A stretch of DNA of 44,196 bases from Microthyrium microscopicum (Eukaryota). Made by a program: the position numbers and the translations under genes. The notes under the pieces were generated by a model that was not told where the DNA came from, did no database searches, and saw only the letters and a list, made by a program, of their open reading frames with translations. The stretch is from assembly GCA_010405405.1 (NCBI GenBank), contig MU004233.1, positions 11,327 to 55,522 on the forward strand, in the 5' to 3' direction. This document shows, in pieces, positions 1-38,924 of this stretch; position 1 is the stretch's first letter, and each line of letters starts with the position of its first letter.

Positions 1-1220
1 AAGGTATTAGGGATTGCATTTAACTTACTATAAGTAATAAATTTAATTTATTCTCTTATCTAATACTAAAAATTAATTAGTTTATCTCTTATAATTAATA
101 AATATAGTACTTTATTCTTTACCTAAATTCTATATCTATTAAATTTAAATAATAGTTAAATTATACTAATTAAGTAATATAATGCGAAAGTATAAAATAG
201 ATAGTAGTACTAAGGTAGTAGAGATTATATATAAATTTAATTTGTTTCCCTATTTAATACTAAAAATTAATTAGTTTATTTCTTATAATAAATAAATATA
301 GCGCTTTATTTTATACCTAAATCTTATATACGTTAAATTTAAAAAATAGTTGAATTATATTAATTAAGTAGAATAACGCGAAAGTAGAAAGTAAATAGTA
401 GTACTAAGGTATTAGGGATTGTATTTAACTTACTATAAGTAATAAATTTAATTCGTTCTCTTATCTAATACTAAAAATTAATTAGTTTATCTCTTATAAT
501 TAATAAATATAGCGCTTTATTCTTTACCTAAATCCTATATTTATTAAATTTAAATAATAGTTAAATTATACTAATTAAGTAATATAACGCGAAAGTATAA
601 GGTAGATAGTAGTACTAAGGTAGTAGAAATTGTATATAACTTTAATTTATTTTCCTATCTAATACTAAAAATTAATTAGTTTATTTCTTATAATAGATAA
701 ATATAGCGCTTTATTCTATACCTAAATTCTATATATATTAAATTTAAAAAATAGTTAAATTATACTAATTAAGTAATATAACGTAAAAGTAGGAGGTAAA
801 TAGTAGTACTAAGATAGTAGAGAATATATATAAATTTAATTTATTTCCTTATCTAATACTAAAAACTAATTAGTTTATTTCTTATAATAGATAAATATAG
901 TACTTTATTCTATACCTAAATTCTATATCTATTAAATTTAAAAAATAGTTAATTTAAGCTAATTAAGTAATATAATATAAAAGTAAAAGGTAAATAGTAG
1001 TACTAAGGTATTAGGGATTATATTTAACTTACTATAAGTAATAAATTTAATTTGTTTCTTTATCTAATACTAAAAATTAATTAGTTTATCTCTTATAATA
1101 GATAAATATAGCGCTTTATTCTTTACTTAAATCCTATATTTATTAAATTTAAGAAATAGTTAAATTATTCTAATTAAGTAATATAACGTAATATAAAAGG
1201 AAGGTAGGCCTAGTAGTACT
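1..1220. repeat. Tandem satellite with 211-bp and 194-bp unit variants (order L-S-L-S-S-L)
   Basis: Units start at 1, 212, 406, 617, 811 and 1005. Long units begin AAGGTATTAGGGATT and carry 17 extra bp; short units begin AAGGTAGTAGA or AAGATAGTAGA. Confidence 0.93.
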
Positions 1221-1223
1221 CTA

Positions 1224-1233
1224 NNNNNNNNNN
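1224..1233. other. Assembly gap (10 N)
   Basis: Run of N. True length is unknown, so adjacency of the satellite and the SNF2 relic is not guaranteed. Confidence 0.99.
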
Positions 1234-4200
1234 GAACTTTATATTTATAATATATACGTAAAATTTAAATAAGTCTCTTATAGTTTTTAGGTATAGTAAT
1301 ATTATTATAACGTAATACATTTAGTATAATAATATCTTCCTTACTATCTATCTCCTTATTAATAAAAGTGCCTCTATATTTATTTATACCTATCTAAGTA
1401 TAAAAGTACTTAGAAGGTATCTTATTAGTACCCTATATAGAATAACCCTTCTTAAATATATTCTTCTTTTTTTTTAGTAAATAGTCCTTAATATATAGCA
1501 AATTACGAGTAATTAGTTCCTTCTTAATCTCTTCGTTATAGACATTAAGCTTAGAATAATAGCCGTCGTTATTATAGTAGTTATCATTATCTAAGTTATT
1601 AGCTACCTTTTCTTTAGTAATTAATAAAAGTTAAGAGAAAGTAACCTTAGAAATACTAGGTAGCTAATTTATAGGACGATTAGACTTAGGCTAAATAGGT
1701 ATATTAATTATAGATTAAGTTTTATTATCTAACTTAATATTTACCTTAGTTTATATTTTATCTATGCGAGCTACTAGTTTTAAACACTAGTTCTAATTAG
1801 TCTTATCTTAACTAGCCTTAAATTTTAGTAGCTTATTATATTTAGCTTCCTTATTAGTATATAAAGTAGGAAAATAGTATTTTAAATTAGCTAGCGTATT
1901 TAGGCATTACTTACTAACGAAACTAGAATCTATATTATAGCAAACTTAGTCTAAGAAAGATATAACTATAGCGTAGTACTTAATTAACTTCTTTCTAAGT
2001 ACCTTTAGGAAATAAATATACTACCTAGATAATTAGGTCTTAAGGGCTATAAGTTCCTTATTAAATACGCTATACTTGCTATTATTAAATATAGTAAAGT
2101 TGCTAATATAAAAAGGAGGAAGTCATTTTATAAATATAGTATCTAGAATTTTGCTAAACTTATCTATATAGTAAAAGTAACTTAGTTAAAATATACCTTA
2201 AACTTTACAAGTCTTAACTAATATAGTTATATAGTTAATAGCCTTAGCCTAATAATACAAAGCCTAGTTATAGTTAACGTTAAATAACTTCTACTTCTTT
2301 AGGTTAGCTAATATAACTAGTAAGATATACGTTAGTACTATTACAAAATCTAATACGATATATAACTTAATAGCTATATTTCTATCTATATTAAACATAA
2401 CGTATAAGATTACGTACTTAACTATAACTATATAGAGTAGGTATAATATTAAAATTAGTAAATGTTCGTATTTCTAAAAAAAGACATTATTACTAGACTT
2501 GCTAAGTAGAGTCTTAACTATATACTTTTAATAAGAGTAATATATTTTAATAGTGTTAGTAAATTAATCTAGTAGTAAGCGCATAAGATAGCATTTAGCG
2601 CGTTAGCCTATACGGAAAAACTAGGCAAACGTTTAGTTTTCTATTACAAGGTTATTAGCTAGCTCTATAATTAATACGTCCTAGAGTCTTTTCTATAAAC
2701 CATTCGTAGCTATACTACTAATAGGCATACTAAGTAAGACTAGGTAGATTAAATAGTTATAAATTACTTACTATATAACTTTATTATATTCTAGTTAACT
2801 ATAGTAGGAACGAATAATAAAGATATTCTACCTATAAAGTTAAGTATATAATTTAGCGAAACTAAAGGCAGTTAGTAACTTATATTATTAAATTAGCTAT
2901 AGACTAAGGGGTCTATAAAATATATAACCTAGGATTATTTATATTCTAATATAAATAAGTTAATATAATTTTACTTATTATTTAAAGGAAGAGTTTACTT
3001 ACAGTTAGGTTTTACTATTTTATATCTATATAGTTAGCAAAGACTATACTTTTCGCTCTTCTTTAGTAGCACTCTTAACCTTATTAGTATTTAACTACTA
3101 GCTCTAACCTTTAATTATAGCTTTATAAACTATTACTATAGTAGCTTATATCTTATCTAAATAATTAGTAATATACTCTACTACCTACGCTAGCTTAGTT
3201 AGTAAAGGCATATACTTATCTATACTAGTTAATAAAAGGAAAACGCTACTATCCTTATATAGATTGTACTAGGCTAAATCCTAAATTGCTTCTTATATTA
3301 GACTATATAGAGTAGCACTATTAGCGCCTATAACGTATTGCTTACTAATAAGGCCTTAACGCCTAAACCCTATAATATAACTATAACGAAGAATTTTAAC
3401 TATTTCTATATAATTCGTTAATAGTTACTCTTTATTAGTAGCAAGTAACTAAAAGTTCTTAAATTAATTACCTATAGTAGTAGCATCCTATAGGTAGAGA
3501 AGTATAGAGTTAATACGCGTAATATTAAATTAATCGTCCTCTTTTTCTTTATTAAAACTTAAACTAATAATATAAGTATAGGTATTATCCTAGTACTCAT
3601 TATAAGTATCGTAATCTTACTAGTTATAAAAGTTAATTATAAACTGCTTATAAGTTAGCTAATACTTCTATTGTAATTAGTACTATAAAGCAAGATAAAG
3701 AGCCTTATAGAAACTATAACTCTAAAATATTATACAAATATCTTATAAATAAAGAGTTACGTAGAAACTATAACCCTAAAATTTATATATTTTTCTAAGG
3801 CTATAGTTTTTACTATGCTCTAAGTAGATAGTAAGTAAGTTAATTAATACGTAATATAGAGTAAACTTATAGTTATAGAAACTAGATTAGGCTTATTACC
3901 TTCTAAGTAGTAAGGTCTAACTCTATTATTTATAACTATAGTTATTAATCGCTAAGTTTATATTTATTATAAGATAGGTTTAATAACTAATAACTTAATC
4001 TTATTATAAGAACTATCTTCTAATGCCTTAAATGTCTATTTAAAAAGCATTAGGTTTATAATCTATAAATACTAGGTATTAGCTAAAGACTTACCTACTT
4101 TAACATTATTTATAAATGTTTAATATAATATAATAAACTCTACGTTTATTAGATTAAACATATACTCTATAGAGGTTTATAAGAAGGTAAGGAGCATTTT

Positions 4201-7200
4201 ATTACTATCTAGATCTTTAGGGTATTCTAGGTTAAAATTATAATTATATATAGTAAGTAATTCCTCTAGGCTAAGTAGAATTTCTATATCGCTTATCTAG
4301 TTATTTATAAACTACTATATTATATTCTATCCTATTTTGAGATACGTATTAAGTAACTAAATTTTGTTAGGTACTAGGGTACTAGAAAAGCTAATAATAT
4401 ACTTTAGATAGCTAAGCAATATTAAGAAATTACTTATACTACGAAAACTTAAGGATTTTTCGTTTTTAATATAGTATATTTTATTAATAATAATTTATTA
4501 TAGTTTTAGATTACTAGTTTACTAAAAAACTAGTCGTTAGGTTTTATCTTCTGCCTTTTTCTTCTAGTCCTTATAGTCGTTTTCTAGTTTAGAGTTATAA
4601 AACAACGCTTTATTATCTTCTTCTACCTATACTATCTTTGCCTCCTACTTAGTAGCTATAATAGCGTCTATATCTTTAATAACTAAGCTAGCTTTAATAT
4701 TATTATTAATAGTAGTATTAGTTTGTCTAGCTAAATCGCCCTTAATATTATTAATATCTAGCTTTACTTTGCTATATTAGCGTTATTTAGGGCCTACTTT
4801 TAGTATAGTATTACTAAGCTTTAAAGTAGCAAAGGCGCAAGCTATTAAGGTAGTTTATAGAACTAGAATAATTAAATACTCTATCTCTTCTTTAGTATAA
4901 TTAATATTAGCATTATACTATTTATTAAACTATTTTATACTAGGTAGAATTAACTTAAACTAAGTAGAACCTTTATACTGCCTAGCTTACCTATACTATT
5001 AGGCAAAGCGTAGGAGAGGAAAGCCTTATTTATTAACCTTAACGTATTAAACTTCTTTAGTAGGCAAAAAATCTAGCAAATAAACTAGGGGTTACATATT
5101 ACTCGTATTACTTTCCTATAATATATTTATACTAGCTAGATAAACTATAATAGTTAGAGCGTAGAGTTTAGTACCTTTTAGAGTAGGATTATTTATAATT
5201 ATATTATATATTTTTTAGACATATATATTAGTATATGCCTTTACTACTATAAAGGTAGTTAGAGTTTTACCTAAACTTATCTTACTTACTATTAAAGCTA
5301 TATAAGTAAAGCGATTAATTAGTTTGTAGATAATAGCTACGTCTAAAATATAAAGTTAGTAATAGGTTATAAATAGAGTAAAGGAAGAATTTAATTTACA
5401 TTACTAAGACTAGATATAATATATAACCTAGGAATATATATACTAGACGTACTTTAATATTCCTAGACAGCATATTTACTAGTAGAGTATTACTAGGGCA
5501 AGGGTAGAGTTAAAAACTTACTAATTATTTAAGAGACTAAGGGCGTAACTATAGAGTTACTACTATAATTAAATAGATTTATATAGCTAGGCTTGTCTAA
5601 TTTATAGTTTCCTAAAGAATACGTACCCTCTTTTATAGTATAACGATAAGTATCTAGAATATTATTAGGTATATCTCGTCCTAGTACTTTTAAAGCTACT
5701 TTAAAACTTATAGTATAATCTAATATCTCCTATACTATAATATTTTATACTACTAATTTTAATTAACTAATAGTCTAGTTAAGTATAATTTTTTCTTTAT
5801 TACTTATCTTAGCACCTATAGCTTAATTAATTATAAGTTTACTAAACTTACGTACTATAGTAGTATACTAATTAGTTACTACTTCGTCTAAATACAAAAG
5901 TTAAGAGTAGTAATTAGTAATAGCACTAGAAAGACCTAAGCTATACTAAATGCGTTTAACGTTAGCCTAATACTTAACTTCTTATATATCTATAACTAAA
6001 GGACTAACCTATTTGACTTATAGAGCTAATAATTACTTAATTATAGCTATATAGGCTATAGGTTAGAGACGACAAGTAGGCTATTTTTTTATAGCGCCCT
6101 TTGTGTTTTTTATAGTATATACTATTTTAGAAATTTCCTCTATTAACTAGTTCTTTAAATTTAGGCCTATATTAAGCATATTGCTATCTAGTAAAATACC
6201 TATACTACCTACTCTAAAAATAATACTATTACTACGCAAAGTTTTTAATACTACTTTACGTTTAATATTATCTATAACTATATAAGTTATATTATTATTG
6301 TCTAGATTATCTTTATTATTCGTACTAAATAGATTCTTTTACTACTATATAACAAAATCGCGTTTAATATTGCTATAGAACGTAGTAAAAAGGTTCTATA
6401 TAGTTTAGTAATCCTTAAAAGGATCTAATTTACTATACTTAGCAATTTTCTATTTCTAATTTAGGAATAAGTGTAGATTTTTCTTAATAGTATTAATAAT
6501 ATAATTAAAAGTAAATAATACTTAGTTCTAATCCTTAATAAATATACTATATATATAATTTATACTATATAGATATATCGTATTTATATCTCTAGGTTAA
6601 TAGACCTCATTAAATATTTTAAGTTTAGCTTAAATAAGGTAGTAAAGGACATAAATAACTAACTTAATTAGGTCTATAGGTTTTAGCCTATTACTATTTT
6701 TAAACTTAATAGGATAGTCTTACTCATAATTAGCTAGCTAGTTTAGGTACTAGATAGGAAATTAACAATATAAAGTATTAAGTACTAACTATTAAATAGC
6801 ATTATTTTCTAGGGAGTTATAAAGAATTTAGAATATAGAGATAATTTAAGGTTTTATAAGCATAGTGTAAGCTTGCCTAGTTACGCCTTTTGCATCTATA
6901 TTCTATAATATTTATACGAACTAAAGATACATACTAGCGTTAGCTTATACTAGATTATTATTAGTAAATAGGTCTAGGTTAATATAGGTTAGACAATACA
7001 TACCTTATATTATTATAAACTTTTCTAAATCTTTAGCGTATAGTAAGTCTAAACCAAGATATAAAGCTAGCTCTTAATTACTTAAAGTGCTACTATATAC
7101 CTACTAGTATAAACTATCTAATCCTTTAAGTACTTTAAACGTTATATATCCTTTTATTACTATAGACTCCTTCTATTTATTAGACTATATATATATTCTT

Positions 7201-8069
7201 AATTAATCTTTAAACTTAACTATTTTTAGCTATAGCTTTTATAATTTAGGATAAGTAATTAACGTATAGTAATATTTAATACGACTAAACTAATAGAAAA
7301 GATAATACTAAAAATAGAGTCGTAGTACATTCGTAGTAACTTTTACGTAACTAATGTACCCTTTTAGCCAATTTTCTATAGAAAGTTAGCTAAGTTTAGG
7401 AACTACTGCGACGCTAGCTAAGTTATATATTAAAGGCATATCTATTATATTAATATCTTTATCCTTATCTACATTAGCATAATTAGTTTACTAGGTAGCT
7501 TACTTGTACTTATAAGAGAGTTTACCTAGTTAATAATTGTCGTTATCTTTATATTTATCCTTATTAGAACTTTAATATAATTAACGTTTACGTTTAGTCA
7601 TTTAGCGTAGGTTTCTCTTAGTTGCTTAAATTTTAAGCTTATTATCGCTTTTAGTAATTTTAAGGTCTAGGTACTTAATCTTAATTGTATTAAGATATTT
7701 ATTTACTATACTTAGCTTACCTTCTTAAGATTACTTTTAATTTGCGTTTTCCTATTCTAGTATTATACTAAGGTTTTTTACCTTTTTTATTAAGAATTTT
7801 ATTTTTCTGTACGCTTTCTCTATAGCCTTATCTAGTTTTAATATAACGTTAAGAATAGTATTTAGTAAAGATTTACGAGGCCCTTTACCTATAAGTTACG
7901 TTCTACTACCTACTAGAGCTTTATAAGCCACTTTAGCTATAGATTATATACTACTAGCTAGTAGAGTTTTATAAGCTATTTAACGCGTAAGTTACTAACT
8001 TAAGCCTAGATAAGACGTTACTAATTTGTTATTATCTTTAGAGTCGTTTATATTTACTACTATACGCAT
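1234..8069 (-). pseudogene. RIP-inactivated large SNF2-family (SF2) ATPase/helicase
   Basis: Minus-strand motifs occur in the correct order. I (5263-5298) reads ALIVSKISLGKT, de-RIP ~ALIASEMGLGKT. Ia (~5113-5157) ~PTIIVCPASxxxxW. II (4474-4485) NKIY, de-RIP DExH, followed by IKN. III (~4369-4392) ~GFSGTPVPN. V (~2690-2740) ~VLLSMPIGGVATNGLQ. VI (2603-2635) *TFA*FFRIG*, de-RIP QTFARFFRIGQ. Candidate ATG at 8069; the frame appears to run into the gap. Confidence 0.9.
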
Positions 8070-8120
8070 AATAGAGGATATATATTTCGTAGGAAACTAT
8101 AATTTAGTAAAGGGATAGCT

Positions 8121-8530
8121 AAGATTCATAACCTAGAAAATTAGGCTACAAGAGGAGAAAATATAAACTTAAAGAAGAGATAACTAAGATTTGTAACCTA
8201 GGAAACTAGGCTACAAGAGGGGAAAATATAAACTTAAAGAAAGGATAACTAAGATTTATAACCTAGGAAACTAGGCTATAAGAAGAGAAAATATAAAATT
8301 AAATAAGGAATACCTAAGATTTATAACCTAGGAAATTAGGCTATAAGAGGGGAAAATGCAAAATTAAATAAGAAATAGCTAAGAACTATAACCTAGGAAA
8401 TTAGGCTAAGTAAGAGAAAAGGAAAACCTAAGTAAGAGAAACCTAAAAACTATAATCTAAGAAATTAGGATACAAAATTAGAAGAGATAGGCTAAGTAAT
8501 AGGATACCTAAAATATATAGCCTAGGGATT
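8121..8530 (+). repeat. 65-bp tandem repeat (~5 units plus degenerate copies) with an internal palindrome
   Basis: Units start at 8121, 8186, 8251, 8316 and 8381. At 8191-8216, TTGTAACCTAG-GAAA-CTAGGCTACAA forms an 11-bp stem with one mismatch. Confidence 0.9.
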
Positions 8531-9439
8531 TTAGCTAGGACTATAGAAAGTAGATAATATAGAGTAAACGTAGTTTTATTAATTAGTATTAGGTTTAGAA
8601 TAGATAATAAGATAGTAGGAAAGAGTTAAGAGGAAGTATAGAGTAATAACTTTAGTAAAAAGGTTTTAAATGTATACAATAGGCTAGCTACAGACTGCAA
8701 CCTAGGAATTTTAAGGCCTATCTACTTAAACTAAACTTTAGAATTTATAAAGAATTATAAAGAAGAAATAAAGGAACTATAAACTTAAAATGCTTTATAC
8801 TTTTTTAGTAAACCTATAGACAAATATTTCGCTAGATATTAATATACGCCTTCTAATATTTAAAAACTTAGCAAATAATTCCTAAAAAGGGAAGGCATAA
8901 TATATTAGGTAGGTAGTAGCGTTTTAATATAGATATAGAGTAAGATAGAGTATAATAGTAGTTACTCTTACCTATATTAGAATATAGGAGTATAAGAACG
9001 TAGGATAGTAGGAGCTAAGTATTAGTGTACTAGATCTATAGTATTAGGAATAACTATATATAATTATAGCATAAGACTTATATTCTAGGGTTATAAACTC
9101 TAAATAGTATATGTCTATTAGTAATTTAGATCTACTTTATATCTTATTTCGTTTAAGTATCTATAATTCTAGGGTTATATTCTATAGTAAGTTATATTAT
9201 CCTTCTAAATAGCAATATTCTTTCTAGCGAATTTAAAACTTATTACTAATTCCTAAGAAGATATTTAATATATTAGATTTGCATTATTCTTATATAATAG
9301 TATTATTAGGATAAATAATAGATTAATTACTATTAAATAATACATAGGTATAGTGTAAATTTTTATATTTAATTAATAGGGCTAGGTAGTTTACTACTAT
9401 ATATTATCTACCTTATAATTCTTTTTATATACTAACTAA

Positions 9440-10770
9440 CTTTTATTATTTATTCTTTTTATTTCTTTTTTTATTTGTCCGTTATTACTAATATAGTTAT
9501 TATAATTATTAATATTATTATTATTTAGTTTTTTATACTCATTATAATAAAGATAAGATATTATATAGTTAAGTTAGAATTATAGTCACTATAAATCGTA
9601 TAACGTAAGTATATCTTAGTTACTATAGAAGAGAAGATTTAGATAATTTCTCTATTCTCTATAGCTACTACTTCTTCTTCTTCTTGTTTTTTGGCTATAG
9701 CTTTCTTCTTAAGCTATAGACGACGAGCTTCTTTGCGTCTAATAAGGATAATAGCTACCCTATATATATTATTACTAAGCCATAGTAGTATAGTAGAGTG
9801 ATAAATTATAGTATCTTAGTTAAGGCTAACTATATTAACCTTATTAAGTCTAGTAAATTTAATCTTTAATTCCCTAGTTACTATAAGCTTTATAAGGAGA
9901 TTAGGGTTCTATTTAAACTTCTGCTCAGTTCTAAAATTTAACGCTTTTTAATAAAAGTAATCTTTCTATCTTTTTTATAAGGCCTAGTTATTACTATATT
10001 TTATACCTTAAGCTATCTTAGGGGATATATTGTTTACTACCTTTTTGATTAATACTTTATACTTAGAGTAAATAGCCTAGGTAATTTTAATATAATATAA
10101 TACGCTATAAACGCGAATTAGCTTATACTATTAGTTGTAGGGTTATACTCTTTTAATTATACTATCTATTCTAAAAAGGTATTTAATAGAATTTTGTACG
10201 TTAGTATAGATATTAAAATAATCTAGTTAAAGGACTATTAGAGAGTTAGATAATAGATATAAGAATCTAAACTCTTAGTCTAATTATATAGTTAGAAAAA
10301 TAGTATCCTAGTATACTAAAGAGATAGAAACATAGTTAATTTAGTTATAAGGTATTAGAGGCAGTAGCTATAATCTATGCATAGCTAAAGGAATAATACT
10401 ACTAATATTATTAATAATTATCGCTTAGGTAGAACTAGTAAGAGTTATTAGCGACGAAAGAATAGATACTAAACTACGCTTATCCTACGATATAGTTAAT
10501 ATTTTAGCAATTCATCCTATCTAAACTTTTTAGCTATTGTTCTTTATAACCTTAGCTTTAGTAGGTTTAGCTTTAGTTGCCTTAGTCTACTCTTTAGTTA
10601 GTTTAACGTTAATAATTAATCTAGTAGTGTTAGACTTAACCTTCTTATCTAAAGCTTTAGTCTTTTTACTAGTTATATTTACCTTCTTTATAGTAGTTAC
10701 TAGCTAACCTTATATACTTTTAGCTATACCTATAGAAGAGTAGTTATTACTAGCTATTTTGCTAGGTATA
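9440..10770 (-). pseudogene. RIP-inactivated NADAR (YbiA/DUF1768-like) domain protein with Lys/Ala-rich N-terminus and charged C-terminal tail
   Basis: Minus frame reads QKFK*NPNLLIKLIVTRELKIKF (~9855-9923), matching KFxQNxxLxxxLxxTG. It then reads WLSNNIYRVAIILIRR (~9735-9782), matching WxGxNxxGxxLxxVR. The upstream HY...SP...W spacing is also compatible. Confidence 0.75.
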
Positions 10771-11175: not shown

Positions 11176-11716
11176 GTAAGAATTGTTATATATTTTATTA
11201 GTAACTTAAGGATGAGTAGTAAGGTAGGCAAAAGAGCTATAAGAAGCTAATAGAAACTGCAACCTAGGAAATTAATATAGGCTAAAATATAGGAATAGAT
11301 AATAGAGTAGTTTAAAGAAAATTTAGAGGAAATTAAGACTAAATAGTTAGAGGTTTTTAGCTTAACCCTAGCCTTATTAATATTTCTAAGGTTTTATAAT
11401 CCTTAATTTCCTAATATAATGCCTAGTATATACTACTTTAGGTAAGTACAATAAGAATTATGTAGGTTAGATATTTTATAACGCTAAGCCTTATAGTAGA
11501 CTACTATTTTAAGAAGTAATGAGTAAATTAAATATATATAGCTACTTCTTATTATAGTAATAATAGGTAATAAAGGGGGCTTTGCTAGCCTAAATAGGTA
11601 AATATTTCTAACAATATACTCTATATTAAAGGTACTATCTAAAAGCTATAACTTAGAAATATTAGGAAGTAAGTTTTAGCTTTAAATCGTTAGATAAAAG
11701 TTACAACCCTATAAAT

Positions 11717-12350
11717 ATTTAGTTATTTTAGGGTTGTAGTCTTTATGTAGCCCTTTATTAGGTATATATTCCTCTCTACTATTCTTTTCCTAGAGCTATT
11801 TTTACTATATACAAATTTAGTTATTTTAGGATTATAGTCTTTATGTAGCCCTTTATTAAGTATATATTCCTCTCTACTGTTCTTTTCCTAGAGCTATTTT
11901 TCCTATATATAAATTTAGTTATTTTAGGGTTGCAATCTTTATATAGTCCTTTATTTAGATATATATTCCTTCTTATTATTCTATTACTAGACTTTTTTAG
12001 CTATTATAATAGTCGTATATTTTAGAGTTATAGGTTTTGTATAGTCCTTTATTATATATATAATCCTACCTATTCTATACATTTTTAGCTATTATATTTA
12101 TAGTAAATTTTAGGGTTATAGTTTTAATATAGTTCTTTATTATATATATATTCCTTTCTACTATAGTTGTACTAGAAGGTATATTTAGGTACTATAATAG
12201 TAGTGTATTTTATAGTTATAGTTTTCAACTAGCTCTTTGTTATATAATTTAATATTATACTTATAGTCTATAAATATAGTTAGCTTTATCTAATAGTTAC
12301 TTAATAATGTTTTCTAGTATAATATATACTATTATTAGGTTATAGTTTTT
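11717..12350 (-). repeat. 98-bp tandem repeat degenerating rightwards, carrying the same motif in reverse orientation
   Basis: Units start at 11717, 11815 and 11913, followed by looser copies. Each has a variant of TTTTAGGGTTRYAGT, the reverse complement of ACTRYAACCCTAAAA. Confidence 0.85.
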
Positions 12351-26779: not shown

Positions 26780-27545
26780 AATTATTAAAACTTAAAAGCT
26801 AATACCTTAAGAATCTATTTAATAGACTTCTCTATTAGGATAAAGTGCTTTAAACTCTTAGTTTTAAGGGCCCTAGGAGTTAGACGCTATTATGCTTCTA
26901 GCTAGTTATTTAGCGACTACTTTTGTTATCTATAGTAGTTTTAAAGTAATCTTAAAGTCTAGTATATACTTAGCTTTATTGCTAAAGGAGGCTATAAAGT
27001 TATTACGTTTTCGCTAGATAACCTTAGTACTAGTATAGTATTAGCACTAACTAAGACATAATTTTAGTTTAGACTTATATATAAATAAGAAACTATAGCT
27101 AGCTACTTAACTATTTCTAGCTAATAGTCTATATATTATATTTAGTAATAGCTCATTAAACGTTAGGTTTCTATAAACTACTTACGTAAAGATAAATATA
27201 AAAGTATTTTCTAGTACTACGCAAATAGCATTTATTATAGCCAACTTTACGATTAATATTATCATAGTCTATAGTGAGATTAGGCTAATTATTAAGGATG
27301 TTAGTAATAACTTTAATTATATAGCTACTATAACTAAATAGGGCTACGTTTATATTAGGTTTTACTATAAAGGCGTGACTAGATAGCTATATTATAAGTA
27401 TTAATAGCTAGATATAAATAGAAGATACTATTATTAAATCTTACTATTAGTATGCATATTATAGTGCTTTGCACGCTTGCTTCCTAATTAATAACATTAA
27501 AGGCCTTAATTATAAAGTCTTACTAAGTACTTAATATAGTAATAT
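26780..27545 (-). pseudogene. Small RIPed, probably intron-containing gene relic with a Cys-rich patch
   Basis: Frame reads NRKVGYNKCYLRSTRKY (de-RIP C-x2-C-x7-C), followed a few codons later by a GTAAGT donor-like site near 27186. Confidence 0.4.
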
Positions 27546-28766
27546 AGCTAAAATAAGGTTTATAGGTTAGTATATATAGTAGGACTTTCTATATAAAATT
27601 AACTTACTTATTTACTTATTTTATATATTACTATAATATAAACTATTATAAAGAGTAGAGAGTAGAAGAGAAAAGGATAGAGGTAGTAGAGTAAAGGAGA
27701 AAGAGAGAAGTATAGAATAAAAGAAGCAAAGAAAGAAGCTATAAATATAGGTAATATATATATTAGGCTTAGCTAGCGCGTAGGTAATACTATAATTACC
27801 TTTATAGGTAGTATAGTAAACTAGTACTACTTTAAGAATAATAATTAACTTTATATATAAGTATAGAAGCTAGAAACTAGGAAGAAATATTAAATATTAG
27901 TATTAGGAGTTAAAGTAGATATAGATAGATACGTAGATACTAGTAGGTATCTTTATACCTAAGGTAATAGTAGAACCTTATAGAAATTAATATAAGAAAT
28001 ATAGTTTACTTAAGCTAATTTATTTATAAATACGCCTTTAAGCTTTCTATTTAAGTCTTATAATAAGATTAATATATTATTAGGAAATATCTACTAAATA
28101 TATTATCTCTTATTTATTCCTAGATATAGAAGATAGTCTCTAAATAAGGTTAATTAATCTAGAAATAATGAAGAATAATGTTAGAATAGAGTATAGTTCT
28201 TATACTTTTAAAAATAAGATACCTTAACTAATATTAAGCTTTATTGCTAAGACGCGCTGCTAAATTTGATTTAGTAACTAGCTATAATACTAAAAGGGGA
28301 AGTACTTAAGTATATATTAGTATTAGGAGTTAAGGTAGATAAGAGTTAAGGTAGATAGAAGTTAACGTATATAAGAGTTAAAGAGCTAGGAGCTAGAGCT
28401 AAGAGCTAGGAGCTAGATTAAAGAGTAGATATTAAATATATATACTAGTAGTTAAAGCTAATAAAAGCTAGGTACTAAGAGTAGTATATATTAGATTTTA
28501 GTATTAGGAGTAGATAATAAATATTAGTATTAAGAGTTAAAGTAGATAGCTAGGAATTTTTTTAGGGAATTTTCTTAGGTTTATTTTAACTCTAGCGTAT
28601 TTTTGCTAAGTAAATTTTAGGTAGAAAGGTTTAGGTAGAGCTAGAATTAAGGTAAATAGTAACTAAATATTAGTAGTAGTAGCGTATAGTAGTATATATT
28701 TAAAAACTATAAACCCTAACCCTAAATTTATTCTAACTTTAGTACTATAGTTTAGTCTAAAATTTT

Positions 28767-28845
28767 ACTATACTAGTACAATAGTAGTACGTAACTCTAC
28801 TATTATATAAAGTTAAGGTTATAGGTTTAAATCCTACGTATAGTA
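28767..28845 (+). tRNA. RIP-mutated tRNA pseudogene, possibly ancestral tRNA-Gly(GCC), with a ~7-nt intron-like insert
   Basis: Complete cloverleaf: acceptor ACTATAC/GTATAGT, D stem GTAC/GTAC, anticodon stem TAACT/AGTTA, T arm ATAGG-TTTAAAT-CCTAC (de-RIP GTAGG-TTCGAAT-CCTAC), discriminator A. A T-run lies ~30 bp downstream. The anticodon position now reads ACT. Confidence 0.8.
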
Positions 28846-28857
28846 GAGTTACTTATT

Positions 28858-29169
28858 TAATCCTTACAAAGGATATTTTTTTTTACTATAGTAAAAAGAC
28901 ATAGAAAATAAGTAGCTTAACGAGCTAAATATAGATGCATTATCTATTTATTTTTTGGCCTTATGTTAGTAAAGATAGAGGTAATTTTATATATTTTAGT
29001 AACCTTAGTAGTAGTAAGGTTACTAGGTTAATCCTTATAGAGGATATTTTTTTGCTATAATGAAAAGACATAGAAAATAAGTAGCTTAACGAGCTAAGTA
29101 TAGATATATTATCTATTTCTTTTTTAGCCTTATGTTAGTAGAGATAAAGGTAATTTTATATACTTTTAT
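28858..29169 (+). repeat. Two ~140-bp direct repeats (period ~171 bp) immediately downstream of the tRNA
   Basis: TAATCCTTA...AAAGACATAGAAAATAAGTAGCTTAACGAGCTAA...GGTAATTTTATATA occurs at 28858 and 29029. The spacer contains the hairpin AGTAACCTTA-GTAGTAG-TAAGGTTACT. Confidence 0.88.
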
Positions 29170-30802
29170 AGTACTTTTAGGTAGAAGTAACCTTAGTAGT
29201 TACAAGCAAATATTAAGATATATTAAAATTAAATAGCTAAATTCCTCTACAATTAGCGTATATAACTTTATTAACGTTAAAGAAGTAATATAAGTCTTAG
29301 AACAAAGATATACTATAGAAGTTGTTAATATCTAGTAAGATATAGCGCTAAAGTTATATAGTAAGTAAATAGTAAGAACGTATTAAATTTTATAGCTAAT
29401 ACAATTTACTAGATAGTTATTATATAAAGATAACATAAGGTAATTTCATACTAAGTAATAAGAACTACTTTAATATACTTACTAATCTTATATAGACTAA
29501 TAAATTTGTCCTTATTATTATACTCTTATATCTTAATACGCTTTAATGCTCTATAAGTCTAGGCCTTTATATCTAAGTAGTATTAATACTAAAAGTATAG
29601 TAGACCTAAAGGAGGTTTGCATAGTAGAAGGATATAAAGTATATGTAGGGTAGTATTATTAGTAGAATAGAAGAGCTTATTACTTAATAACTCTCTAAGT
29701 TTTTCTAGGATATATTCTAGGCTACTTTAGTTAGTTAGTATAATAAGATTAGTATTAATATTAAGCTCTATTAAGTATATTTACTTTAATATATTTTATA
29801 GTCCTTTTAGAAACTTACTTATCTCTCTAAGGGCTAATTTATTAAAGTGCTAGTTATGTGTATGTTTATTATAGTTTTGCTATATTTTATAAGTAGTATA
29901 TTGCTATTATAAGTCTTTAACTAGTATAATTAATAGTAGAATAGGTAGTTTCCTTTTATATAGAGTTTATTATTAGAGAATATAGAAGAATAGTATTTTT
30001 ATAATCGCTAGGTAGAAAAAAGTAGTAGTATTAAAGAGTAGAGTTAGTAATATTTTAGTTTAGGGTTAGGTAAGGGTTTAGCTAAGGTTAAAGGAACTAG
30101 TAAACCCTATAATAATATGCTCCTTCCTTTATCTTTTATATCTTAATTATTATCTATACTATCTTCTTTAGTATATACAAATTATTTAATATTTACTATA
30201 ATAGAGTAGGGTAGTACCTATTATTACTATATCCTAGTCTTATAATAAGATACTAAAAAGCTATTTAAAGTCTATAACCTAGTTATTTAGTAGTCTTATA
30301 TTATAATAGTTAGTAACTATAGTACGTAGAGTAAATATATTTATTTAAGACTATTAACTTTTAGCTTAATTACAGTATAGCGTAGTATAGCGCAGTGTAT
30401 TAGTAATCTAGATATTACTATAGGCTTCTTAAAAACTATAGCCTAGGAGGAATATTAAAAAAGCTAGGTTATAGTTTTTAAAGAGTCCTTTAGAGTAAGT
30501 TACTAAGACTACTAGAATTAAATAGAGAGTTAACTTTAGACGAAGTAAATATAAGTAAATAATATATAGAGCTATAGGGTAGAGTAGTATTATACTATTA
30601 GGTATTAGTTTAGTAGGTATTGTCACTAATAGTTAAAAGAGAGGTTATATTCTATTAGTAAGTTACCTTACTAAGTCTCCCTAACGTAGTATTTTAATAA
30701 TAGAATTTTTACTAAGTCCTAACTTCGTACTATTAGATCTATCTACTTAATAAGAGTATTATATTATATAAAATTATATATATTTAATAGAGAACGTTAA
30801 CC

Positions 30803-31111
30803 TAAGTAATATAAGCTTTAGAGTATATTTATTAAGTAGGTATTAAAAGAGTTATAGAGGTATAGAGGTATCTCTCTACTAAAAATATAAACTTTTAGTA
30901 GTCTAATATTTTGCGTACAAACTAACCTAACTCTAGCTCACGAACGTCTACTATAATTTAAGTAATATAAGCTTTAGAGTATATTTATTAAGTAGGTATT
31001 AAAGAAGTTATAGAGGTATAGAAGTATCTCTTTACTAAAAATATAAACTTTTAGTAGTTTAATATTTTATATATAGACTAACCTAACTCTAGCTTATAAA
31101 CGTCTACTATA
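30803..31111 (+). repeat. 153-bp tandem duplication (period 156 bp) at the junction of two RIP regimes
   Basis: Copies are 30803-30955 and 30959-31111. Copy 1 has TTGCGTACAAAC and CTCACGAAC where copy 2 has TTATATATAGAC and CTTATAAAC. Confidence 0.92.
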
Positions 31112-31449
31112 TTTCTTCTTATTACGTAAAACTTATATCTCTTATCTATATAAACTTATTTTAATTACTCTTTAAGCTATATAATATATTATTCTTATAT
31201 TTAAGCTTTATTTATTTATTTTATTTAAAATACTATAACTTTTATTACTATCTAGTCTTCTTCTATATAATCTCTATTTTATATAAAATATTATAAATTA
31301 GCTAATTTAGTCTTATTTTCTAGGATATTATTAGTACTTACTTTTTACTTACTTTTATATTAGGGTAGTAATAATAAAAAAATAATATATTTCTACTATT
31401 ATAGTTAATTATACTACTAGTATTTTATAGTATTCTTAGTACTATTATC

Positions 31450-34400
31450 TATAATACTTAGTAAATAGAAGTTATTTTTATTATTCTCCTTATACCTTAT
31501 ATTATATTTCTTACTATTCTTTTCCTCTTACTTTTACTTATATTTTTACTCTTTATTTTACTCTTTATTATATTCTTCTTTATTATTAGGTATTATAAAT
31601 CTATCTAGATTACTAGATTCTTTATTAGTTTTATCTTTAGAGTCTATAATAAAGTCTTGTTCTTATTATAGTTAACTTTTATAAAGTCTTTTTAATATTA
31701 CCTTATTAATTTCTACTTATAATTATTATAATTTCTTTATAATACTATATAGTAGTAGTTACTAACTTAGTAATATTATTCTTAATATAAATAATACTTT
31801 TTATTATTAAGTTTAATAATTTATAGATAGAAACTTTTTATATTTTATATAGTTCTTTTTAAGCTTATTTATTAAATTTTACCTTAGCTAAATATCTATA
31901 TTAAAACTATTATATATATAGTATTATATACTAAACTATATTTAGATACTATCTATATAGGTAAGATAATCTATACTTATATTATTTAATATATATAGTA
32001 TTTTATTATTATCTAATTAAAGTATAGTATATACGTTTACTATAACTTTTAGCTTAGTACTTTTTAGATTACTATTTAGCCTTATATATATCTTACTACG
32101 TAATTATATATTCTTTAAACTTTATTATAAGTTTTACTATTTAACTATATTTAATTCTATATAATATTCTTTTACTTCTTAACTATATCTACTTTATAGC
32201 TTTTATATCTATAATTCCTTTCTTTTATATTTCTTTTATTATTTAAGTAAAAGTCTTATCTTAATAAATATATAATAATACTATAATAATTCTAATAATA
32301 AGCTTACTATATTAATAGATTTATATATTTTCTTAGCTAGATTTCTTTTTAAAATAACTATATTTTATTAAAGTCTAGCTATTATAAAGTTCTTATAGCG
32401 TACTATATATAAAATAATATATAAGTAATATCTATATAGCTTACATATTTCTTTTATCTTTATAAGCTTTTCTAGCCTTAGCTACTCTCTTCTTAATTAA
32501 TTAGGTATCTAGTCTTTAGTAGCTATTTAATATATAGCCCTAATACTTTTATAATAATATTCTTTTCTCTTCCTTATAACTTAAAACTACTACGTAAAAC
32601 TAATAGCTAATATTTTTTTATTTTTAAAATATATTTACTATTTCTTACTTCTCTTTAATAATTTTATTATTTCTTTATTACTTTTCTTATATTTAGGCTC
32701 TTTATAATAACGTAGCGTATTTAAAGTTATTATAATCTTTTTCTAGAATCTATATAAACTCTTATTATATATTATTTATAATTTAATCTTATTTTTCTAG
32801 AAACTAATAGAGTTATATTTACTCTACTATTGTAATAAATTAAATAGATAAGTTTTACTAATATCTTTATTATACTTATCTATTTTTACTTAAATAGGCT
32901 ATTTCTCTTCTATGTTCTTAGTATTTAGTATTATAGTTATTATATCTTTTTTTATCTTCTTAATATTATTATCTAGTTTAATTACTATTAAGTATTAAGT
33001 TAATTATACGTTACTAATAGTACTTAGTTTAGATTAACTCTACTATATTTTTCTTAGCCTACTTATTTAACCTATTTTGCTCCTTTCTTTAAATATTCTT
33101 TATAATCTAATATAATATAATTACTTTACTTAGTTGTTTCTACTTTCTTACTTATCTACTTTTCTATATATAGTCTTATATTATTTTTATCCTACCTTAA
33201 TATATAACTACGTAAACTAGTAGCTTATTAATACTTACCTCTATTATACTTAAATAAATAAATACTTATATACTTCTTTATATTAACTATTTTAATACTT
33301 TCTTCTTTATATTCTTTAATAACGTCTAATAATAATATATTACGCCTAATATATTTATTATCTTTTAAATTATTTCTATAGACCTATTAATATATATAAT
33401 AATCTTTTCTTACTCTTCCTTATACTTAACTAATAACTTATTTATTACTAACTTTAAAACTTCTACCTCTTTCTTTTACTTCTAGTTCTATCTTTAAACC
33501 TTATATATAATATTCTTACGTACTATTAACTCTTATAGCTATATAATAGTTTCTAAATTAATACTTATTAAATTTATTACTTATTTAAACGTTTCTTTAT
33601 TCCTTAGTAGTAATATTACTATTAAGTAAACTATTTATATCTTCTACTTAATTAATAGCTATAAATCTAGCATCTTTTCCTTCTACTTCTTTAGTACTAT
33701 AGTATTTAATATTATATAATACTTATTAAATATAATCCTATCTAACTAACTAATTTACTTTTACTTAGTTAAAAACTATAAAAAAGTCTTTTTTATAGCT
33801 ACTTTTAGTATTATAAAAATAATATTTACTTAATCTTACTAATCTTTAGGGTTTTACTCTATAGTATTAATTTATAAATCTCTATATCTTATTATTATAT
33901 CCTTCTCTAAAGTAATAAATAGAATAATAATAATAGTTATATTCTTAACTTCTCTACTTTTATATAACGCTAGTAATATAAATAATAAACTTTTGTTTCC
34001 TTTTGTTTTTATAATTATAATAATAGACCTTTTTTATAATATAATTACTTTAATTCCTTACTCTTAAATATTTTAAAACTTTATACTTTTACTAGCTAAC
34101 TTTTCTAACTATATATTTATATTAATTTAATATAATAATAACTAGTATAATATTATACTATCCTCTATACTTACTTTTACTAAGGTTTATATTCCTTTCT
34201 TTTCTAACTACTATTTCTCTTTAAGTATAAATAGTAATAGTAATACTTTATACTAAGTAGTACTTATTTTTCTAAATACTTCTTACTTAGTATATAATAT
34301 ACTAAACGTCTTACTATAGCTATACGTATACGTTATTACTAATATTTACGTATTATAACTAGCTTATTTATTAGCTATTAAATCTAATTTATCTATACTT

Positions 34401-37300: not shown

Positions 37301-37590
37301 ATTCTAAATAGTAAAATAAGAAGTTCTTAAAAGTATATAGTTCGTCTTAGTAATATTATAGCATTTAGGCTTTATCTTATAAGTTAGATATAGTACGTAA
37401 TCTTATTAAAAGCGGCGTACTTTTCTCTTTATATAATAGCATATTACTAACTATACTTATTCTCTTAATTAATCTCTAGGCAAAGTTATATATACTATAT
37501 TAACTTATAATTTTAATCTACTCTTCATTCTAAATAATATACTACTAACTAGTATACTATAAAAGAGGGTTAAATCTAACTTATATATAC

Positions 37591-37803
37591 TTCCTCTAGT
37601 ATTTTTAAGTCTTTATCTTTTAATATTAATTTCTAACTACCTTCTAGGTAAACTAAGAGAATAATTAAGGTCTAATATAGCTCCTAAAGGAGCTAATACC
37701 TACCTAAATTAGGGTTTTTATTAATTTAATATTAAGTTAGTATTCTTTTTAATATTAAAAGGAAGTAGATATACTCTTACTTATTAGTTATCTTATTACT
37801 AAT
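37591..37803 (+). repeat. 213-bp direct repeat, copy 1
   Basis: TTCCTCTAGTATTTTTAAGTC...TTACTAAT matches 38712-38924. Confidence 0.92.
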
Positions 37804-37828
37804 TTTCCTACTATAATATAGAATAATA

Positions 37829-38524
37829 AAACTAAAATTAAGAAGGAATTACTTAAGTTAATATATAATAGCTTATAAAATTAGACTTTTACTAAATAAG
37901 CTAAGTTGCTTAAGCTAATAAATAATAGTTAGTATTAATGCTTATAAAAGTAAAAAGAATATTAGTCCTACTTATATTACTCTTTACTATAAAGAGATAA
38001 AAAAGAGAGATAGCTATATTTATAGGCCTTATATATTCTACTAAACCTTAATAAGCTAGGTATTAAGATTTAGTAGAATATTAAAGGATAGTATATATAA
38101 TAATATAGTAACTCTTAATATAGGATTTAGATATACTAAAACGAAATAGAATCTTTTAGTAATATAATAAATAATATTATAATAAAATCCTATTTCTAAT
38201 ATAATAAATAATATTATAATAGAAATAGGATCTTATTATAATATTATTTATTATATTACTAAAAGATTCTATTTCGTTTTAGCATATCTAAATCCTATAT
38301 TAAGAGTTCTTATATTATTATATATAGTTAAGAACATAACTATCTCTCTTTTTTATCTTTTTATAGTAGGGAGTAATATAAGTATAACTAATATTCTTTT
38401 TACTTTTATAGGCATTAATACTAACTATTATTAATTAGCGTAAGCAACTTAGCTAGTCTAGTAAAGGTCTTATTTTATAAGCTATTATATATTAACTTAA
38501 GTAATTCCTTCTTAATTTTAGTTT
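37829..38524. repeat. ~700-bp imperfect palindrome (foldback)
   Basis: The left arm 37829-38198 is the reverse complement of 38220-38524, with a 21-bp spacer. The left arm has ~60 extra bp near 38020-38090. Confidence 0.92.
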
Positions 38525-38711
38525 CCTTAGCTAGCTAAGCTATATATTAGTCTTACTTCTATTTAACCTATAGGTTAGTCCTACTCCTAATTTATTTATA
38601 AATTAATAGTACTTATAAACTTATTACTTATAAGGGGCAGTTTACTAATAATATATCTATGTTTACTTTAAGTTTATATTTTTTTTTTAGTTTATACCTT
38701 TAATCCTTAGT

Positions 38712-38924
38712 TTCCTCTAGTATTTTTAAGTCTTTATCTTTTAATATTAGACCCTAATTACCCTCTAGGTAAACTAAAAGAATAATTAAGGTCTAATATA
38801 GCTCCTAAAGAAGCTAATACCTACCTAAATTAGGATTTTTATTAATCTAATATTAAGTTAGTATTCTTTTTAATAATAAGAGGAAGTAGATATACTCTTA
38901 CTTATTAGTTATCTCGTTACTAAT
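38712..38924 (+). repeat. 213-bp direct repeat, copy 2
   Basis: Matches 37591-37803 with a small number of substitutions. Confidence 0.92.

Follow-up and report, generated by a model that had tools for sequence, protein, structure and literature searches.

The window analysed here, a stretch of 44,196 nucleotides from Microthyrium microscopicum (contig MU004233.1), contains between a tandem array and an assembly gap a series of features that are all read on the minus strand, and which are given below in the order of that reading:

8110..8475, no strand: 65-bp tandem array, which sets the high end of the coding-like interval
5440..8139, minus strand: coding-like N-terminal flank in one frame (frame 1 relative to 8100)
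5295..5133, minus strand: motif I-Ia profile match, 55.5 half-bits against a decoy maximum of 40.0
5263..5286, minus strand: SNF2 motif I (Walker A), SKISLGKT; matched once in the RIP-aware scan of the window, 0.30 expected
5113..5157, minus strand: motif Ia, LTIIVYLASINIL*E, inside the I-Ia profile match
4524..4332, minus strand: motif II-III profile match, 55.7 against a decoy maximum of 44.0
4462..4494, minus strand: motif II (DEAH box region), IIINKIYYIKN; matched once in the RIP-aware scan of the window, 0.03 expected
4366..4389, minus strand: motif III, FSSTLVPN, in the frame common to I, Ia and II
4006..4053, minus strand: weak post-III block (LP...Y region), LMLFK*TFKALEDSSY; in the frameshift-tolerant chain only, not above noise in the block scan
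3107..3021, minus strand: motif IV chain block, 30.5, kept under each of the three gap settings displayed (io 10, 13 and 16)
3030..3056, minus strand: motif IV, AKSIVFANY, frame 1; not above noise when scanned alone
2693..2743, minus strand: degenerate motif V, LVLLSMPISSIATNGL*, in the chain; the canonical motif V pattern has no match here
2603..2665, minus strand: motif VI with its NP..E.Q lead-in, ELANNLVIEN*TFA*FFRIG*; the single long-pattern match, 0.00 expected (20 shuffles)
2546..2590, minus strand: conserved tail after motif VI, YLMRLLLD*FTNTIK, within the V-VI profile match at 2677..2545
1240..2545, minus strand: coding-like C-terminal flank in the motif VI frame (frame 2), running into the assembly gap
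1224..1233, no strand: assembly gap of 10 N, which sets the low end of the interval

It is clear that the locus holds a sequence of the SNF2 ATPase family on the minus strand, with motifs I, Ia, II, III, IV, degenerate V and VI collinear and in canonical order, with the signature of repeat-induced point mutation (RIP) and with all of its reading frames lost. It is very probably the relic of a large SNF2-family ATPase gene, inactivated by RIP, then decayed by indels, and lying within a long AT-rich, RIP-saturated block; today it codes for nothing. The gene would first have been inactivated by RIP and would then have decayed through small insertions and deletions, so that its putative ATPase core, from about 5400 to 2546, is now spread over a first frame (motifs I, Ia, II and III), a second (IV) and a third (V and VI). 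In SNF2 proteins, Walker A (motif I) and the DEAH box (motif II) are described as binding ATP and Mg, and the arginine of motif VI as the sensor of the gamma-phosphate, in the part of PMC1616948 that deals with these motifs. In its working state the protein would, judging by its motifs, have been an ATP-driven double-strand DNA translocase. Some 25 codons ahead of motif I, and likewise in frame 0, a YQ-like Q motif can be made out by eye.

An earlier note on this DNA had named the SNF2 motifs with their distances and had called two of their variants atypical, leaving the strand unstated. All of these motifs are present, on the minus strand, and the distances agree with that strand (2.78 kb from 8069 to motif I, about 0.65 kb from Ia to II, about 1.65 kb from III to V and 1.37 kb from VI to 1234). 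The unusual SEMGLGKT is borne out as well, the codon before EMGLGKT being AGT, which yields S or G by transitions and never D, and so is the FFRIGQ form, since the two codons before RIGQ are TTT TTC and hence not H.

The state of the DNA is that of saturating RIP throughout. In the relic the GC content is 0.21-0.29 and the (CpA+TpG)/(ApC+GpT) index 0.10-0.25, both even along its length, and the RIP indices are uniform over the 6.9-kb interval (15 bins of 500 bp), with no gradient from edge to centre. The surroundings are much the same: the whole 44 kb in which it lies are degraded by RIP, with a GC content of 0.16-0.28 in all 44 one-kb bins of the window, a TpA/ApT ratio of 1.51-1.77 and a (CpA+TpG)/(ApC+GpT) index of 0.03-0.26, and tandem arrays and degraded repeats lie on its flanks. 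Each of the six frames of the relic interval holds 254-303 stops per 2,288-2,289 codons, and the longest open run in any frame is 66 codons. The uniformity of RIP across the relic fits a self-duplicated sequence rather than mutation leaking in from neighbours, and on the evidence of RIP alone the sequence probably once existed in at least two copies; no second copy was found in the window, either by blastn or by transition-blind (purine/pyrimidine) 30-mers.

Standard searches give nothing on this DNA. An exact and near-exact search of the raw translation returned no canonical SNF2 motif apart from SLGKT; Pfam, searched with the raw translation (stops as X) in six frames and with core pieces, returned no family and only a sub-threshold DUF2922 (E 0.45), the missing SNF2-rel_dom or Helicase_C match being expected after saturating RIP. 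The same X-translation found nothing in the PDB, in a word-indexed protein search or with phmmer over 1.84 billion representatives, and megablast against phages gave no match. The SNF2 identification thus rests on our own RIP-aware scoring, in which a T may derive from C and an A from G; both strands of the 44-kb window were scanned under this rule, and codons were scored against profiles by summing over their C>T and G>A ancestors.

Under this scoring, the I-Ia block stands well above its 252 reversed-profile decoys, whose mean is 24.9. The V-VI block reached 83.1 against a decoy maximum of 38.6, and 86.9 against 46.9 with the other profile build, values that are inflated and partly circular, since the references had been fetched by a DNA pattern designed from the relic's own motif VI and 12 of the V-VI profile columns are fixed by construction. 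Two independent profile builds, one from 47 ORFs and one from 12 RING-bearing ORFs, placed their best whole-window I-Ia, II-III and V-VI matches at 5295, 4524 and 2677, the I-Ia match of the 47-ORF profile (41.6) not exceeding its decoy maximum of 43.6. In pairwise comparison with the 47 references, the I-Ia block scored up to 71 (reversed-sequence mean 32.1, maximum 43.0), this best score coming from an ungapped 70-residue alignment to reference L056, and the IV-VI block scored 43-76 (mean 33.6, maximum 46.9). The motif V region was aligned to the LISLKAGGVGLN region of reference L031 with a 2-codon insertion. Among 25 strongly conserved profile columns, 11 are identical in the relic, C>T or G>A accounts for another 10, and 4 are left unexplained; under random shifts, an average of 5.1 columns were compatible. 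The frameshift-tolerant chain scored 134.8 against a maximum of 103.1 in 27 controls; at a low gap cost (gap-open 10) this alignment overfits, with 269.8 against controls of up to 254.6. The Q, Ib, post-III, RING and IV blocks, each scanned by itself, did not rise above noise. Pairwise RIP-aware alignment of the whole region was discarded, being driven by low-complexity K/E/D matches and inseparable from decoys.

The spacing of the motifs can be compared with that in the references. From I to II there are 261 codons (references 79-519) and from III to IV about 444 (156-794); the 36 codons from II to III compare with 31 in 37 of 38 references and 37 in the remaining one, and the 439 nt from IV to VI, which include a frame change, with 86-94 codons.

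Since RIP cannot alter a signal that is blind to transitions, we have followed the coding frame with a model of purine/pyrimidine codon classes. Of 149 windows in leave-one-out trials, the model ranked the correct frame first in 124 and the correct strand in 133. Along the locus it favours minus frames 1, 0 and 2 in turn from about 8139 to 1240, next to the gap at 1233, and is ambiguous at 7390-6640, 5740-4990, 4390-3340 and 3190-2290; above about 8140 all minus-strand scores are negative. Over the 899 codons of the N-terminal flank, minus frame 1 scores +14.7 nats, against a maximum of 5.6 in 300 shuffles (best of six frames), a K/E/D-rich low-complexity stretch lying at about 7994-7416 and a weak coding signal at 7390-6640. 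The C-terminal flank scores +10.3 nats (shuffle maximum -1.9) and has stops in 23 of its 436 codons in minus frame 2, compared with 42-84 in each other frame. Against the references, neither flank finds a relative: the N-terminal one resembles reference N-termini in nothing beyond low complexity, with no HIRAN-like match, and the C-terminal one shows no similarity. Three other tests of strand or frame were set aside. A strand test for which the relic's own core served as training set was dropped after failed cross-validation, stop density alone did not distinguish the sense frame from the antisense frame in phase with it, whether in the core or in the N-terminal flank, and purine periodicity (R1-R3) is strand-symmetric, so it informs on frame only.

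Positions 1234 and 8069 are not gene ends but limits that come from the N gap and the tandem array. One gene of at least 2,280 codons, running from 8139 to the gap, is a possible reading of the interval, and whether the coding-like stretch at 8139-5440 belongs with the core, or that at 2545-1240, we judge to be evenly balanced for each flank taken separately. Quite plausible too, though we lean against it, is an arrangement of two or three separate minus-strand genes, with a compact SNF2 gene between one that runs from 8139 to about 5500 and one from about 2500 to beyond the gap. The changes of frame, one at about 5440 and another between roughly 3900 and 3100, would suit such an arrangement, as would the windows of weak coding signal, where intergenic spacers may fit, the flanks' lack of similarity to SNF2 reference N- or C-termini, and two references in which motif I lies only 35-40 residues from the ORF start. 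The tail in particular favours a second gene, since about 460 codons follow motif VI in the relic, as against 14-187 residues in the references. However, no clear spacer parts the ATPase core from the coding signal on either side of it, the C-terminal flank keeps the motif VI frame with a low and even stop density from 2700 to 1240, and with the Q-like motif so close before motif I, a separate promoter and N-terminus would fit only if the protein was very compact.

Among the SNF2 subfamilies, the relic may, by its sequence features, belong to the Rad5/16-like grouping in its wide sense, an assignment that we make tentatively and with marginally less than even confidence. It is based on the glutamates in the EP..NP..E.Q lead-in to motif VI, together with the long I-II and III-IV spacers. 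The grouping takes in Rad5/HLTF, Rad16, Ris1/Uls1, SHPRH/Irc20 and Lodestar, the names following a table of PMC1616948. Its members share with the relic the glutamate in the NP..E.Q lead-in and the long spacers, which lie within the reference range, and the W-less EP..NP form of the relic is similar to that of SHPRH-type sequences. In contrast to them, the relic has S or G, and not D or E, before EMGLGKT; no RIP-compatible RING was found between its motifs III and IV, in a search of low power, and its N-terminal part gave no HIRAN-like match among the references. The lead-in glutamates are not derivable from aspartate by transitions.

In the Rad5/16, Ris1 and SHPRH subfamilies a RING finger (C3HC4) is inserted between motifs III and IV, and Rad5/HLTF proteins carry an N-terminal HIRAN domain. 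A RING is present in 12 of the 47 reference ORFs. No RIP-compatible full RING or 10-codon core was found in any minus frame of the relic, in a search whose power is low (frame changes, and 4 of 25 columns beyond RIP). With 7 of 8 ligands, 4 matches were obtained versus 1.5 in shuffles (P=0.14). The RING placements in the frameshift-tolerant chain varied in position between runs and were rejected.

Among the sampled references, which come from one metagenome pattern scan, hold SNF2 proteins with one motif VI form only and include no aspartate-type groups, the relic is not closest to any single group. For the I-Ia block the best references are an algal-looking Rad16-like group. For the motif VI block they are an AT-rich group with QAFAR residues (55-56), a ranking in which composition bias may favour AT-rich references; most of the others listed score 41-51, and the lowest 20-29. 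Attempts at a subfamily assignment failed, and the summed scores mix four architecture classes.

DNMT5-type proteins combine a C5 methyltransferase, a RING and an SNF2 domain. They resemble the relic in being very long and in having a long N-terminal region before the SNF2 domain, and the relic differs in its long tail past motif VI. No RIP-compatible contextual ENV (motif VI of a C5 methyltransferase) was found in the 2.7 kb upstream of the SNF2 domain or elsewhere in 8100-1234, nor did the full motif IV (PCQ) pattern occur there; one bare PPCQ-compatible site lies at 7301, at chance rate (86 matches in the window versus 52 in shuffles).

How the gene may have come to be repeated is a further matter. 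The earlier note had inferred an element-specific SNF2 clade from the RIP mutation, host remodelers being normally single-copy. This logic is weak, since RIP does not imply an element-borne gene: RIP-degraded amplified clusters of endogenous Rad5/SNF2-like genes exist, as the relevant passages of PMC3017866 describe. An SNF2 gene on a mobile or amplifying element, in a clade carried by a large repeat family, is, in our estimate, unlikely. It would agree with the uniform saturating RIP over 6.9 kb, the surrounding 44 kb of RIP-degraded DNA, the atypical motif variants in a sequence not closest to any one sampled SNF2 group, and the coding-like signal that runs throughout the interval into flanks without recognisable relatives. 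However, eight RIP-aware transposon signature motifs (transposase, reverse transcriptase, integrase and Rep) occur at or below shuffle expectation in the window, no terminal direct or inverted repeats bracket the relic by blastn or purine/pyrimidine 30-mers, both being crude tests, and the window holds no second copy. The titles, abstracts and passages returned by full-text searches yielded no fungal transposon family with an SNF2 gene of its own, and the published precedent (PMC3017866) is an amplified endogenous gene cluster.

That precedent makes the relic one of a known kind. The X3X3R8 repeat of Parastagonospora (Stagonospora) nodorum is made up of copies, degraded by RIP, of an endogenous gene cluster that includes Rad5/SNF2-like helicase genes and a gene for a Rad6-like E2 (Hane and Oliver 2010, PMC3017866). 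On that account both are SNF2-type helicase genes surviving as RIP-mutated, frame-broken relics in fungal repeat DNA, and both are recognisable only once C>T and G>A changes are allowed for. Unlike X3X3R8, the present window shows neither the HPN signature of an E2 nor a second helicase copy in tandem, and RIP appears more severe in the relic (GC about 0.24), the two being compared by description. In the window, the long HPN pattern of a Rad6-like E2 had 0 matches and the short one 2 versus 4.8 expected, none near the relic, and no second motif I or II was found.

Repeated elements with a superfamily 1 or 2 helicase gene are also known among DNA transposons, namely the helicase-bearing Helitron, AcademH and KolobokH, to go by the portion of PMC10799480 that treats them. 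The relic differs from these in that no transposase or Rep signature was found here. To our knowledge, the helicases of Helitron, AcademH and KolobokH are not SNF2-type.

More specific, and quite improbable, is a single RING-less SNF2 ATPase gene of at least 2,280 codons, from a lineage outside the described subfamilies, that was amplified in this fungus as cargo or engine of an undescribed large repeat unit until RIP struck. The protein of such a gene would carry about 950 residues ahead of motif I and a tail of more than 450 beyond motif VI.

Leakage of RIP out of a repeat is known to fade within about one to a few kilobases. A host remodeler gene present in a single copy, and mutated only by leakage from neighbouring repeats, would suit the lack of a second copy in the window and the tandem arrays and degraded repeats on the flanks, but the RIP indices show no edge-to-centre gradient over 6.9 kb, and this origin is very improbable. 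That the motifs are chance matches in AT-rich DNA under a loose RIP-aware reading can practically be dismissed: an A/T-only codon has eight transition ancestors, so short motifs match often, the patterns for III, V and Ia and the short one for VI do occur at about the shuffle rate and a stray VI-like match at 30809 scores 51.5, but motifs I, II and long VI are single matches where well under one was expected, they follow the canonical order on one strand, and I, II and III share a frame. Of the 25 conserved columns, 21 are compatible, a figure that never exceeded 11 in 2,000 random shifts, and the profile blocks exceed the decoy mean by 8-9 decoy SDs.

Taken together with the reading of the locus as an SNF2 relic, these results are in themselves of little weight, adding one more gene relic in a RIP-saturated AT-rich block. 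They do mean that about 7 kb of 'unrecognisable' AT-rich DNA is still readable: transition-blind methods, based here on purine/pyrimidine codon classes and on scoring codons against profiles through their C>T and G>A ancestors, give its strand, frame and family, whereas Pfam, the PDB and billion-sequence searches give nothing. If more copies exist in the genome, a de-RIPed consensus could show whether fungi have an amplifying unit around a very large SNF2 protein, a result that would be relevant to the expansion of gene families and their later silencing in genomes capable of RIP. No RNA run is among the sequencing runs listed for this stretch, which is present in four DNA runs of one sample.

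From the raw six-frame translation no canonical SNF2 motif can be recognised. Once T is allowed to descend from C and A from G, the transitions of repeat-induced point mutation (RIP), strings on the minus strand turn into the SNF2 motifs that the earlier note had described, and the spacings it gave between them fit this strand. The following are raw minus-strand translations (asterisks are stops), save where marked:

5286, minus strand: SKISLGKT, motif I
5157, minus strand: LTIIVYLASINIL*E, motif Ia
4494, minus strand: IIINKIYYIKN, motif II
4389, minus strand: FSSTLVPN, motif III
After motif III, minus strand: a weak block, added by a frameshift-tolerant chain
3056-3030, minus strand: AKSIVFANY, motif IV, in a third frame, added by the same chain
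Motif V, degenerate: LLSMPISSIATN, aligned to LISLKAGGVGLN of L031, an SNF2 reference locus on a metagenome contig
2665, minus strand: ELANNLVIEN*TFA*FFRIG*, motif VI

Motifs I, II and III lie in a single frame. In a scan of the whole window on both strands, a codon counted as a match if any of its transition ancestors could encode the motif residue. Motif I was matched once (0.30 expected from shuffles), motif II once (0.03) and motif III nine times, one of them at 4389 (8.5 expected); a short pattern for motif VI had ten matches, among them 2635 (4.9 expected). The sole match in the window to a longer motif VI pattern was at 2665 (20 shuffles gave 0.00), and the Ia and V patterns had no match in the relic.

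To obtain references, a single degenerate DNA pattern (motif VI lead-in plus core) was used to fetch SNF2 genes from metagenome contigs, which gave at least 119 stretches. Many of the matches listed resemble eukaryotic genes in having RING inserts and ORFs split by introns, and 47 ORFs of at least 400 residues each, taken from these matches, served as references. Each window codon was scored against a residue or profile column, summed over possible C>T and G>A ancestors at a mutation probability of 0.5, with odds from BLOSUM62 or hmmbuild emissions; controls came from reversed proteins and profiles, from the opposite strand, from reversed DNA and from elsewhere in the window. The best whole-window match of the II-III block to the 47-ORF profile lay at 4500..4356 (52.3, decoy maximum 43.1), and that of the I-Ia block, at 5295..5235, was not significant alone (41.6, decoy maximum 43.6). 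With a second profile of 12 RING-bearing ORFs, I-Ia scored 55.5 at 5295..5133 (decoy mean 24.9, SD 3.4, maximum 40.0, n=252) and II-III 55.7 at 4524..4332 (decoy maximum 44.0). The V-VI block scored 86.9 and 83.1 with the two profiles (decoy maxima 46.9 and 38.6), both at 2677..2545, values that are inflated because the motif VI fetch pattern was designed from the relic and fixes 12 V-VI columns; I-Ia and II-III are free of this circularity. Pairwise scores reached 71 for I-Ia (reversed mean 32.1, maximum 43.0) and were 43-76 for IV-VI (reversed mean 33.6, maximum 46.9). The frameshift-tolerant chain scored 134.8 at a gap-open penalty of 16, against a maximum of 103.1 in 27 controls; at a penalty of 10 it overfits (269.8, controls up to 254.6). 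The relic keeps the expected residue in 11 of 25 strongly conserved columns; RIP-type transitions account for another 10 but not for the last four, while random shifts left on average 5.1 compatible columns and at most 11 (2,000 draws). We judge the SNF2 identity and the minus strand to be secure: the relic is that of a real SNF2-family ATPase gene which RIP has destroyed, and its core lies at about 5400-2546. With stops written as X, the raw translation gave no Pfam family in all six frames and core pieces, and no match among PDB sequences, in a word-indexed protein search or by phmmer over 1.84 billion representatives.

Two further matches were set aside. One, at 30809-30874 (plus strand) in a 156-bp tandem duplication (30803-31114), fits the motif VI columns with 51.5 (decoy maximum 38.6) and is probably spurious, lacking the IGQ end and any other SNF2 block nearby; the other, the runner-up for II-III at 34599-34318 (minus strand, 45.0-49.9), was judged to be noise, since inspection showed no recognisable DEAH or TGTP.

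The core is spread over three frames. Motifs II and III are 36 codons apart; 37 of 38 references have 31 here and the remaining one 37. From IV to VI the core spans 439 nt and changes frame, where references among the matches listed have 86-94 codons; this excess could be an intron or an insertion. An ORF break directly before motif V occurs in many fungal-looking references among the matches listed.

The limits 1234..8069 proposed earlier do not hold as gene ends, and describe instead the room between an assembly gap and a satellite:

1-1188: tandem array, periods 194 and 405 bp, past the gap
1224-1233: run of 10 N (assembly gap), low bound
8110-8475: tandem array, period 65 bp, high bound

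Further satellite-like arrays lie in the AT-rich block at 43235-44196 and 11710-12290 (periods about 97 and 98 bp).

Since transitions never swap purine and pyrimidine, coding signal was sought with a model of eight purine/pyrimidine codon classes, trained on 23 eukaryote-like reference ORFs. Tested by leave-one-out on 149 windows of 150 codons, it put the true frame first in 124 and the true strand first in 133. Frames are counted relative to 8100:

8139-5440, N-flank: minus frame 1 best, +14.7 nats over 899 codons (shuffle maximum 5.6)
5400-3901, part of the core: minus frame 0 best, +11.0 nats over 500 codons (shuffle maximum 4.4)
2545-1240, C-flank: minus frame 2 best, +10.3 nats over 435 codons (shuffle maximum -1.9)

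All three per-codon scores fall where those of real ORFs do (3.5 +/- 2.6 per 100 codons). Minus frame 2 of the C-flank has 23 stops among 436 codons, about as many as RIP at saturation would create from Gln, Trp and some Arg codons; every other frame there has 42-84. Sliding windows give no clear call at 7390-6640, 5740-4990, 4390-3340 and 3190-2290, and the minus-strand signal is wholly gone above 8140. Coding-like sequence thus fills the minus strand across the whole interval, which could be a single gene of at least 2,280 codons, and the flanks may or may not be part of the SNF2 gene. Two or three adjacent genes are a serious contender, to which we give somewhat less than an even chance; they would accord with the just 14-187 residues that follow motif VI in the references among the matches listed. 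Neither flank matched these references, except for a K/E/D-rich low-complexity stretch at 7994-7416.

As to subfamily, the motif VI lead-in reads E, L (from P), A, N, N, L (from P), V (from A), I, E, N and a stop (from Q), and neither glutamate codon (GAG, GAA) is derivable from aspartate via transitions. At the second of these two glutamate sites, the Rad5/16-like grouping and bacterial SNF2 proteins typically have glutamate, and the Snf2-, Swr1-, Rad54- and Mot1/ERCC6-like groups aspartate. The missing tryptophan recalls SHPRH-type EP.LNP forms, and the spacers I-II (261 codons) and III-IV (about 444 codons) are inside the reference range, both among the matches listed. RING is regarded as a mark of the Rad5/16, Ris1 and SHPRH subfamilies; no RIP-compatible C3HC4, C3H2C3 or 10-codon core was found in any minus frame, and the 4 hits of a 7-of-8-ligand search did not rise above the shuffles (1.5, P=0.14), both searches having low power from non-RIP damage and frame changes. 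The relic is not clearly nearest any group in a reference set, drawn from the matches listed, that lacks all aspartate-type subfamilies. Five RING-less SNF2 ORFs with short I-III spacing were seen among these matches, on metagenome contigs of GC 0.21-0.35 (L011, L031 and L055, complete at about 780 residues, L092 and L062). They have NPAVE.QAFAR around motif VI in common with the relic's RIP-compatible reading; their high scores may come from composition bias.

Both standard RIP indices are extreme in the window (TpA/ApT 1.51-1.77; (CpA+TpG)/(ApC+GpT) 0.03-0.26), GC is 0.16-0.28 in every 1-kb bin, and the longest stop-to-stop frame in 1-10,000 is at most 66 codons. Inside the interval the values are flat over 15 bins of 500 bp (GC 0.21-0.29; 1.48-1.98; 0.10-0.25), and this uniformity without an edge-to-centre gradient argues that the relic sequence itself was once duplicated, with its partner outside the window. 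In the window, blastn found no second copy, purine/pyrimidine 30-mers gave just chance-size matches (31-37 nt), and the RIP-aware scan gave no second motif I or II. The earlier note had taken the mutated state as a sign of an element-specific gene. This step is unsafe, because P. nodorum has a RIP-degraded repeat, X3X3R8, whose source is an endogenous gene cluster that includes Rad5/SNF2-like helicase genes (PMC3017866). In crude RIP-aware scans, signatures of reverse transcriptase, integrase and the Tc1 and hAT transposases were no commoner than in shuffles, and no E2 or C5-methyltransferase signature lay near the relic; no fungal transposon family that carries an SNF2 gene of its own is described in the titles, abstracts and passages reached by full-text search. 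In one possible reading, the interval would be a giant, RING-less and perhaps amplified SNF2 gene.

Elsewhere in the window, 28767-28845 (plus strand), within RIP-degraded DNA, matches the Rfam tRNA model at 46.2 bits (gathering score 29), and ARAGORN calls no tRNA in the whole window; the match could represent a tRNA gene that has mutated, or a repeat derived from a tRNA. A small unit at 37589-38924 carries 215-bp direct terminal repeats (37589-37803 and 38710-38924, 93% identical) around palindrome-like inverted arms (about 37828-38198 against 38220-38525, by blastn and purine/pyrimidine 30-mers). Strand asymmetry is strong and of opposite sign in two adjoining stretches, with a GC skew of +0.18 to +0.30 over 27-31 kb and of -0.27 to -0.61 over 31-37 kb, where GC drops to 0.16-0.19; this switch within 27000-37000 may be a junction between degraded units of differing orientation.
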